Positions 10,364-11,029 of a stretch of 64,000 nt of DNA are shown here, piece after piece. Every line of letters starts with the position of its first letter. The stretch's first letter is position 1. This stretch comes from Bdellovibrionales bacterium. GTDB lineage: Bacteria > Bdellovibrionota > Bdellovibrionia > Bdellovibrionales > UBA1609. Position numbers and translations under genes: made by a program. The stretch spans positions 491,097 to 555,096 of the forward strand of contig CBDATD010000001.1 in the NCBI GenBank assembly GCA_965199935.1. Direction: 5' to 3'. The notes below the pieces were generated by a model. That model made no database searches, had not been told where the DNA came from, and saw nothing but the letters and a program-made list of their open reading frames with translations.

Positions 10364-10411
10364 CAATCAATCAATCAATCAATCAATCAATCAATCAATC
10401 AATCAATCAAT
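10364..10411 (+). repeat. Perfect tetranucleotide repeat (CAAT)x12
   Basis: Counted directly: 12 uninterrupted CAAT units spanning 48 bp. Confidence 0.98.
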
Positions 10412-10412
10412 A

Positions 10413-10421
10413 TGATATAAT
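10413..10421 (+). promoter_or_regulatory. Extended -10 promoter element TGATATAAT
   Basis: A TGnTATAAT match lies 1 nt after the CAAT tract and 8 nt before the ATG at 10430. There is no SD in between. Confidence 0.6.
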
Positions 10422-10429
10422 GCCCTCAT

Positions 10430-11029
10430 ATGAAACTTGTCCAGATTTTTCTTTTATGTTTTTTGAGCGGTTCTGTCCTCGCACAGAAAAAAAATTCTCC
10501 GTCAAAAAAACAAGAATCAACTCCGCCGCAGGAGATAAAACTAAAACCAGCCCCTCTTCCAATCCACAGCATGGGGGATCATTGGTCAGGAGTTCGGGAG
10601 GCCGATGGAGTTTCTACCTATAAATTAAAATCAAACCCTAAAGTCATCGGGACTTTTCACCTGCAAAAACAAGAGAAAATAGATTTAAAAGAGTTGAAAC
10701 AAAAAGATTTTTTTAAAAAATTCACCTGGAGAAAGGAAGAATGGCTGAGAGTGATCGGCATCCAAGAGTGGAAGGCGGACTCACACAGTCTGAAGAAAAG
10801 AAAAGATTTTATGGAGTTAAATATCAAGGGCTCCTACAAAAGGTCCAGCGGCCGGCAGGTGTTTTTTAAAGAGCGTCAGTTATTCTTTCCAGACTCGGTT
10901 TATCAAATACTCGTGATTGGTCCGGAAAAGAAAACCCTTCAAAAAGGGAGTGTGAGGAGTTTTTTTAAGAAAGCCCAAAAAATAGGAATTCAAAAGAGAA
11001 AGGGGGATCAGCGTGAATCAAGGTCATAG
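10430..11029 (+). CDS. Hypothetical secreted Lys-rich protein
   Basis: The N-terminal signal peptide is MKLVQIFLLCFLSGSVLAQ. I recognise no family. Confidence 0.6.
   Translation: MKLVQIFLLCFLSGSVLAQKKNSPSKKQESTPPQEIKLKPAPLPIHSMGDHWSGVREADGVSTYKLKSNPKVIGTFHLQKQEKIDLKELKQKDFFKKFTWRKEEWLRVIGIQEWKADSHSLKKRKDFMELNIKGSYKRSSGRQVFFKERQLFFPDSVYQILVIGPEKKTLQKGSVRSFFKKAQKIGIQKRKGDQRESRS

Follow-up and report, generated by a model that had tools for sequence, protein, structure and literature searches.

Contingency loci, in which a hypermutable simple repeat switches a gene, are known, with few exceptions, from host-adapted pathogens that can be cultured, such as Haemophilus, Neisseria, Campylobacter, Helicobacter and the mycoplasmas. 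In porA, opc and fetA of Neisseria, and in hifA/hifB of Haemophilus with its (TA)n repeat, the tract lies between the -35 and -10 elements and sets the length of the promoter spacer, which is about 16–18 nt when the gene is on. The (TAAA)n tract of nadA in Neisseria meningitidis is positioned upstream of the core promoter, where unit number sets the spacing of a distal element and yields low, medium or high expression of the surface protein (PMC2791445), while the (GAA)n tract of vlhA (pMGA) in Mycoplasma gallisepticum lies about 40 nucleotides (nt) upstream of the transcription start, with the gene active at 12 units (PMC6258824). In Haemophilus influenzae, (CAAT)n tracts inside the reading frames of lic1A (licA), lic2A and lic3A, just after the start codon, act as translational frameshift switches with a high rate of slippage (PMC2651432), and (ATCTTTC)n tracts in the 5' untranslated regions of hmw1A/hmw2A give graded, length-dependent expression through an RNA hairpin and RNase III (PMC12721329). 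Here we describe a (CAAT)12 tract at the promoter of a two-gene operon in a 64,000-nt stretch (positions 491,097 to 555,096 of contig CBDATD010000001.1, assembly GCA_965199935.1; hereafter the window) from a Bdellovibrionales bacterium. Judged from sequence, the tract and the promoter beside it probably form a mutational expression switch for the gene pair, which would be a known kind of system, a repeat at a promoter, in a lineage without an earlier report. An initial annotation of the window had suggested that contingency loci are undescribed in this kind of organism and, in keeping with that, the literature collection that we searched held no report tying Bdellovibrio-like bacteria to repeat-driven phase variation, which is not proof of absence.

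The twelve CAAT units occupy positions 10364-10411 of the plus strand (10362-10411 with partial units), a span that Tandem Repeats Finder returned with period 4, 12.5 copies and 100% matches, and they make up a perfect simple repeat long enough for slippage at a high rate. A single A (10412) separates them from the extended -10 element TGATATAAT (10413-10421, plus strand; TGn followed by TATAAT, an exact match to TGnTATAAT), after which come eight further nucleotides (gccctcat) and the ATG (10430-10432) of an open reading frame (ORF) that encodes a signal peptide. Direct reading of the letters bore out what the initial annotation had described, namely twelve perfect units ending 1 nt before a 9-nt -10 element, an ATG 8 nt beyond it with no Shine-Dalgarno motif (nothing resembling GGAG lies upstream), and hence a tract abutting the promoter of a secreted-protein operon; the promoter looks real, its -10 keeping its position relative to the ATG in 10 of the 11 promoter copies that we compared across the gene family. 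The tract's claimed uniqueness in the window also withstood a repeat search and shuffling: window shuffles predict 0.01 occurrences of a 16-nt CAAT pattern, which is present only at the tract, no second comparable repeat was found in the window, where the longest G or C run is 7, and the sole other multi-unit repeat there is (CTCTTTGG)3.6 at 62817-62845. The tract is non-coding. On the plus strand, TGA (10413-10415) and TAA (10418-10420) close two of its frames and the third is out of register with the first gene, and on the minus strand every frame contains TGA.

Among the homologous loci (designated L001, L002 and so on), a TAnnnT hexamer precedes the ATG by 6–9 nt in the same 10 of 11 copies, with TGn ahead of the -10 hexamer in five (the window, L001, L004, L006 and L011). 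Because this gap is conserved, the mRNA is most likely leaderless or near-leaderless, with a predicted start between A10428 and A10430 on the plus strand, 7–9 nt past the extended -10, a position to which the 8-nt gap in the window and the lack of a Shine-Dalgarno motif also point; the same spacing accounts for that lack. Such a start would place the 48-nt tract at about -17 to -64, where it replaces the -35 and UP-element region. A consensus promoter scan found no -35/-10 pair at the tract, which fits a promoter without a -35, an element that an extended -10 normally does not need, and in our own reading the repeat hexamers available at spacers of 16–19 nt match TTGACA at only 1–2 of six positions. 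Since the repeat is periodic and runs right up to the -10, adding or removing a unit leaves the sequence of the core promoter unaltered, and a change in unit number can therefore act only through something farther upstream or through total tract length. The initial annotation had called this the classic geometry of promoter phase variation, which it is not: each unit does shift the upstream DNA by 4 base pairs (bp), but the tract fills the positions given above and not a -35/-10 spacer.

Leaderless mRNAs may be common in this organism. In the window, 14 of 40 long ORFs have a Shine-Dalgarno motif before their first start (22 of 40 when alternative starts are allowed), and two other window genes show TGATAGAAT, then 6 or 9 nt, then ATG. 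Strong -10 elements (TGATAGAAT or TGTACAAT) placed 6–9 nt before an ATG that lacks a Shine-Dalgarno motif were seen at 45077-45091 (gene 42260-45076, minus strand), and the same leaderless-type layout, with one or other of these elements, recurs at 62854-62871 (gene 62001-62853, minus strand) and 35782-35798 (gene from 35799, plus strand).

Comparison with the two closest loci makes it very probable that the tract is a mutable site. L001, a second copy of the cassette in another genomic context, carries (CAAT)11 at 2939-2982, and between window positions 10318 and 11239 the two copies are one CAAT unit apart (12 versus 11) with no substitution in the 918 nt outside the tract; that is, the tract changed while the 918 flanking bases did not. 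L002, an ortholog at 57% protein identity, has (CAAT)13 at 2924-2975 in the same position, within an intergenic region of 110 bp that adjoins a tRNA synthetase gene. A slippage-prone tract with a unit count that varies across related loci, as had been anticipated, is thus supported by counts of 11, 12 and 13 in three loci, read from assemblies as paralogous or strain copies.

On the far side of the tract lies AAGGTCCAG (10347-10355, plus strand; family consensus AARGTCYAG), the left-most sequence common to all promoters of the gene family. This box is recognisable in 11 of 11 promoter copies, with variants TTAGTCCAG in L010, ATAGTCTAG in L011 and AAAGTCTAA in L004, and it marks the left limit of homology, the DNA upstream of it being unrelated between lineages. 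The tract accordingly sits between promoter elements, the -10 on one side and the conserved box on the other, for a start that is predicted. This is the layout of nadA and vlhA, where a tract separates the core promoter from a conserved cis element, and the box is found 29–68 nt from the -10 in all 11 copies: 29 nt in L006, 31 nt in L004 and L011, 35–38 nt in copies with a poly-G tract (below), 52 nt in L003, and 56, 60 and 68 nt in the CAAT copies of L001, the window and L002, respectively. The L003 spacing matches the window layout with ten units and exceeds the 31-nt spacing by two helical turns, an agreement that is suggestive only. Between box and -10, degenerate CAAT periodicity was detected in L011 (21 of 31 nt, p = 0.0003) and L004 (ATCAATCA, p = 0.009), and more weakly in L006 (CAATGAATCAA; p = 0.05 ungapped, p = 0.007 by local alignment); because it occurs at the same place in these three loci, the tract looks like an expansion of native sequence.

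Other relatives carry other repeats at this promoter. The first copy in L005 reads TTGTAA, A6T, G10, TACAGT (spacer 17), the second TTGCAA, A5T, G9, TAGAAT (spacer 15), and L010 reads TTGAAA, A5C, G8, TAGAAT (spacer 14), all lengths as assembled. L004 has TTGCAG, 17 nt, TATCCT, 6 nt and ATG, followed by (ATGGATGTCAAAAC)16. This 14-nt unit, repeated 16 times, begins at and contains the start codon, and all three frames of the repeat are open; at 16 units the ATG nearest the promoter does not share the frame of the mature protein, as it would at 17 or 14. No long repeat is present in the two copies of L003, in L006, or in L011, where the second gene of the pair stands alone behind a homologous promoter. 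Counting as long repeats G or C runs of at least 8, and units of 2–20 nt in 5 or more copies that together span at least 20 nt, we found eight in the 115,481 nt of non-redundant window and locus sequence, all of them upstream of or at the 5' end of the gene pair: seven at its promoter or start codon and the eighth 200 nt upstream of one copy. The loci had been gathered by protein similarity, without regard to their repeats, and the recurrence makes the best case for selection on those repeats.

A C10 run in L005 (2426-2435) lies between genes, 200 nt upstream of the second copy of the gene pair, and is separate from the G9 tract of that copy's promoter. Ahead of the gene pair in L004 (2480-2720; e.g. 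cacccccgcgaaagcaggggtccagtcatgcg) and L010 (2450-2620; e.g. ggattcctgcctccgcagga) are several copies of short palindromes rich in G+C, which resemble small repetitive extragenic elements.

Set against the described systems, the window tract appears functionally closest to nadA and also close to vlhA. With nadA it shares a tetranucleotide repeat upstream of the promoter core, flanked by conserved DNA, but in nadA a normal -35 follows the tract, and NadR operators and an integration host factor (IHF) site are experimentally defined, whereas the window tract replaces the -35 region, touches an extended -10 and probably serves a leaderless mRNA. The likeness to vlhA extends to a multi-copy family of variable surface proteins, a small genome and a tract upstream of the core promoter of each copy with conserved flanks; vlhA differs in its trinucleotide unit, which lies farther from the -10, and in encoding lipoproteins with a known role in immune evasion, and members of the window family use different repeat types. 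Spacer control of the porA, opc, fetA and hif kind is not the arrangement in the window, where the tract is 48 nt long with no -35 at a usable distance and a spacer mechanism is inapplicable, yet exactly that arrangement is found in both copies of L005 and in L010 (in outline TTGYAA, an A-run, G8–G10 and TAGAAT or TACAGT, with spacers of 14–17 nt). The lic genes share the CAAT unit itself, in tracts of the same range or longer, and the initial annotation was right that the repeat is intragenic there (PMC2651432); in the window, however, the tract is neither coding nor intragenic. As in hmw, where the gene concerned encodes an adhesin, the repeat is intergenic and upstream of a gene, but the hmw repeats are transcribed, whereas the -10 in the window lies downstream of the tract.

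The reading that we prefer, at a probability of about 0.5, is that a slippage-prone tract drives phase variation of the two-gene operon through the spacing of a distal element. Slipped-strand mispairing at the tract would alter the number of CAAT units, and each unit would shift the box AAGGTCCAG, together with any factor bound there, by 4 bp, a turn of ~137 degrees about the helix axis, with respect to polymerase at the extended -10, so that the leaderless operon would be expressed more strongly, more weakly or not at all, in a stochastic and reversible manner. Of the parts of this proposal, an effect of unit number on expression seems slightly favoured, while action of that effect through spacing to the box is put forward tentatively, at rather less than even odds. 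Several observations weigh against the proposal. The tract covers all contacts of RNA polymerase upstream of the -10, and unless a distal element, be it the box or another, is functional, a change of one unit at 11–13 units need not alter transcription. The box is short, and AGTCYAG is enriched neither in these sequences as a whole (23 occurrences versus about 28 expected) nor outside the promoters. Helical phasing of the box was considered and set aside except as a prediction: the distances from box to promoter in the three CAAT loci (56, 60 and 68 nt) fall on no common phase, nor do they share one with the 29–31 nt of L004, L006 and L011. The 11-versus-12 difference is between assembled copies in two genomic contexts, not between reads of one population, and L001 is labelled 3.28x; the poly-G lengths may be one too long or too short, their contigs being labelled 2.3x and 3.07x.

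One alternative is a neutral microsatellite, in which native CAATCAAT expanded by slippage at a promoter that needs only its extended -10 and has since drifted between 11 and 13 units with no effect on expression. The proto-repeat is indeed present in relatives, the core promoter sequence is independent of unit number, and across about -17 to -64 the -35 and UP positions are always occupied by the same repeat. Against neutrality, repeats of three unrelated types turn up at this one promoter in different lineages and none of such length occurs in the other ~114 kb examined, the poly-G tracts sit between -35 and -10, a spacer whose length is known to be important, and a perfect 12-unit tract would be hard to keep in a genome of ~1 Mb without ongoing slippage, selection, or both; we consider this explanation unlikely, though not far-fetched. 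A different use of the same DNA would be control by tract length, through a protein-binding array or an unusual DNA structure beside the -10, so that transcription would fall (or rise) as units are added, or else a long expansion that silences this copy, in the way that most vlhA copies are silent, by parting an ancestral -35 or activator site from the -10. In L004, TTGCAGGAATACATCAATCA aligns with GTCCAGGAACATATCAATCA of the window, and TTGCAG serves there as a -35 at a 17-nt spacer, suggesting that expansion may have displaced an old -35; the family is also multi-copy. The window, however, keeps a perfect extended -10, the three loci stand at 11–13 units and span no wide range of lengths, and no candidate binding protein is known, all of which makes control by length or by silencing improbable.

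Were the tract instead transcribed from a promoter farther upstream, it could act within a 5' untranslated region as in hmw1A. That precedent (PMC12721329) speaks for such an arrangement, as does a conserved stretch of 354 nt that the window and L001 share ahead of the tract. Almost every family member, however, has its -10 hexamer on the gene side of the tract, 6–9 nt from the ATG; L002, whose intergenic DNA amounts to no more than 110 bp, has no counterpart of the 354-nt stretch; and that stretch has neither a fold signal nor an Rfam match and no Shine-Dalgarno motif follows the tract, leaving this a very improbable account. Regulation of lgt, which is divergent and 380 nt away on the other strand, is excluded in practice, as is an assembly artefact: the same tract and cassette stand by maf in L001 and by a tRNA synthetase gene in L002, lgt has a promoter-like site of its own at 10050-10021, and a tract is found at this position in each of three contigs, two of which derive from different samples.

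The promoters of this family have repeatedly acquired different hypermutable repeats. A wider proposition, which we regard as speculative and rather doubtful, is that the whole family of gene pairs in small-genome Bdellovibrionales is under repeat-driven stochastic control by three interchangeable devices that act at a single leaderless promoter: tetranucleotide units in place of the -35, poly-G between -35 and -10, and a 14-nt repeat that contains the 5'-terminal start codon. If so, the unit number of the 14-nt repeat would set the frame of leaderless translation, making the third device a translational switch specific to leaderless mRNAs, and the family would provide the first set of contingency loci in this phylum. 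Should the window tract switch expression, uncultured small-genome Bdellovibrionales (contigs of ~1–1.4 Mb) would use the same bet-hedging as the pathogens for a fast-evolving pair of secreted and membrane proteins, and the pair would then stand out as a key point of contact with host, prey or phage. The family loci also amount to a natural series of promoter variants for the effect of a repeat beside an extended -10 on a leaderless promoter.

The genes under this promoter are, as the initial annotation had it for 10430-11936, those of a secreted protein and a Cys-rich membrane protein, on the evidence of their ORFs, signal peptides and eight invariant Cys residues. The first gene (10430-11029, plus strand) encodes a secreted protein of 199 amino acids whose ORF starts MKLVQIFLLCFLSGSVLAQKK. 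Its AlphaFold2 model (predicted local distance difference test, pLDDT, of 82) has Foldseek matches to PsbP, Mog1, DcrB and EagT6 at template modelling (TM) scores of 0.4–0.5, suggesting an alpha/beta fold like theirs, and a profile search found an unnamed family of proteins of ~160 amino acids; homologs of the first gene were seen only in Bdellovibrionales-type contigs of metagenome-assembled genomes (MAGs), and the one homolog with a name comes from a MAG labelled Bdellovibrionales bacterium. The second gene (11013-11936, plus strand), which starts at a GTG overlapping the end of the first and is preceded by a Shine-Dalgarno-like AGGGGGA (11001-11007), encodes a Cys-rich membrane protein of 307 amino acids with a signal peptide, the eight invariant Cys, a hypervariable hydrophobic region rich in Gly and Ala, and a conserved basic C-terminal helix; its AlphaFold2 model (pLDDT 49) was of low confidence and was not used for searching. 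Searches of Pfam and NCBIfam returned no family for either protein or for their distant relatives.

The second gene directly follows the first in 10 of 11 copies, all but that of L011, and the pair is often tandem-duplicated, for example in L003 and L005. Identity to the L003 genome is 58% for the product of the first gene and 35% for that of the second, against 89% for the ribonucleotide reductase beta subunit, so that the pair, which is present in many cases as several copies, evolves fast in these small-genome Bdellovibrionales. The beta subunit encoded in the window is 89–95% identical to proteins on contigs of ~1.0–1.4 Mb, and 76–78% identical to proteins labelled Bdellovibrionales or Oligoflexia bacterium. 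A GTDB scan found the gene family in two genomes only, JAPPLG010000008 (isolate RHO3_bin_17) and OZ252021 (a 1.28-Mb chromosome), and from the isolate labels we take the Bdellovibrionales that carry it to be probably host-associated. Profile scans with both genes gave no match in JGI metagenome contigs. Plasmid and phage collections gave no match either, so a mobile-element origin gains no support.

The cassette shared by the window and L001 runs from window position 10010 to about 11568, and follows maf in L001 but stands beside lgt in the window. Measured per 100 nt, identity between the two is 100% from 10410 to 11209 and 48–79% after 11240 (L001 from about 3811 onward), with the breakpoint at 11240-11249 on the plus strand, inside the second gene. 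So sharp a breakpoint indicates recombination or gene conversion between cassette copies, and the pattern points to a process that keeps the promoter, the first gene and the 5' part of the second uniform while the hydrophobic part of the second diversifies. Exact-protein look-ups for a sister strain with lgt, the second gene, P0002 and P0004 returned no record; a 16,170-bp contig (P0171, close lgt variant) is likely to come from a sister strain.

Upstream of the tract, the cassette includes the 354-nt stretch mentioned above (10010-10363), which is 97% identical to L001 2585-2938, with the differences clustered at 10182-10191 and 10316-10317, and has a G+C content of 46% versus 38% for the window; only L001 has a counterpart, the stretch being absent from the other loci compared. 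Two candidate features in it were set aside. A structured RNA upstream of the tract had no Rfam match (searches of the window at the gathering threshold and of 9900-10500 at E ≤ 1 returned only four tRNAs, all elsewhere), and the folding z-scores of 10018-10363 on the two strands were -0.3 and -1.0. A minus-strand ORF of 112 amino acids (10028-10366) has no ATG, shows only non-synonymous differences from L001 and has no homolog in the other loci, and we treat it as non-coding. On the opposite strand, lgt occupies 8916-9983. The initial annotation had remarked that the tract lies upstream of lgt, which is true of its position, but the relevance of that position did not hold up: since the L001 cassette, tract included, follows maf and the whole intergenic region of L002 is 110 bp, the tract goes with the cassette rather than with lgt.

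Several neighbours of the gene pair were noted. AbiEii/AbiEi toxin-antitoxin genes adjoin it in two unrelated loci (L003 655-1500 and L010 917-2358), and a signal-peptide protein of 227 amino acids is encoded beside the second gene in two lineages (L003 4804-5487 and L006 3205-3888; 28% identity, E = 5e-18), to which the 192-amino-acid neighbour in the window (11939-12517, minus strand) has no detectable relation. Close to the window cassette lies a DNA methyltransferase gene (N6_N4_Mtase; 12761-13735, minus strand). Farther along the window, the 8-nt repeat at 62817-62845, (CCAAAGAG)3.6 on the coding strand, lies in codons 5–13 of a type IV pilin-like ORF (62001-62853, minus strand) that has the leader MIGRAKEPKSQRVRFAGQRG followed by LSLIEILSASALISIL and whose ATG is preceded by TGATAGAAT and 9 nt. 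Because a change in unit number would shift the reading frame, this repeat may be a second, weaker contingency site.

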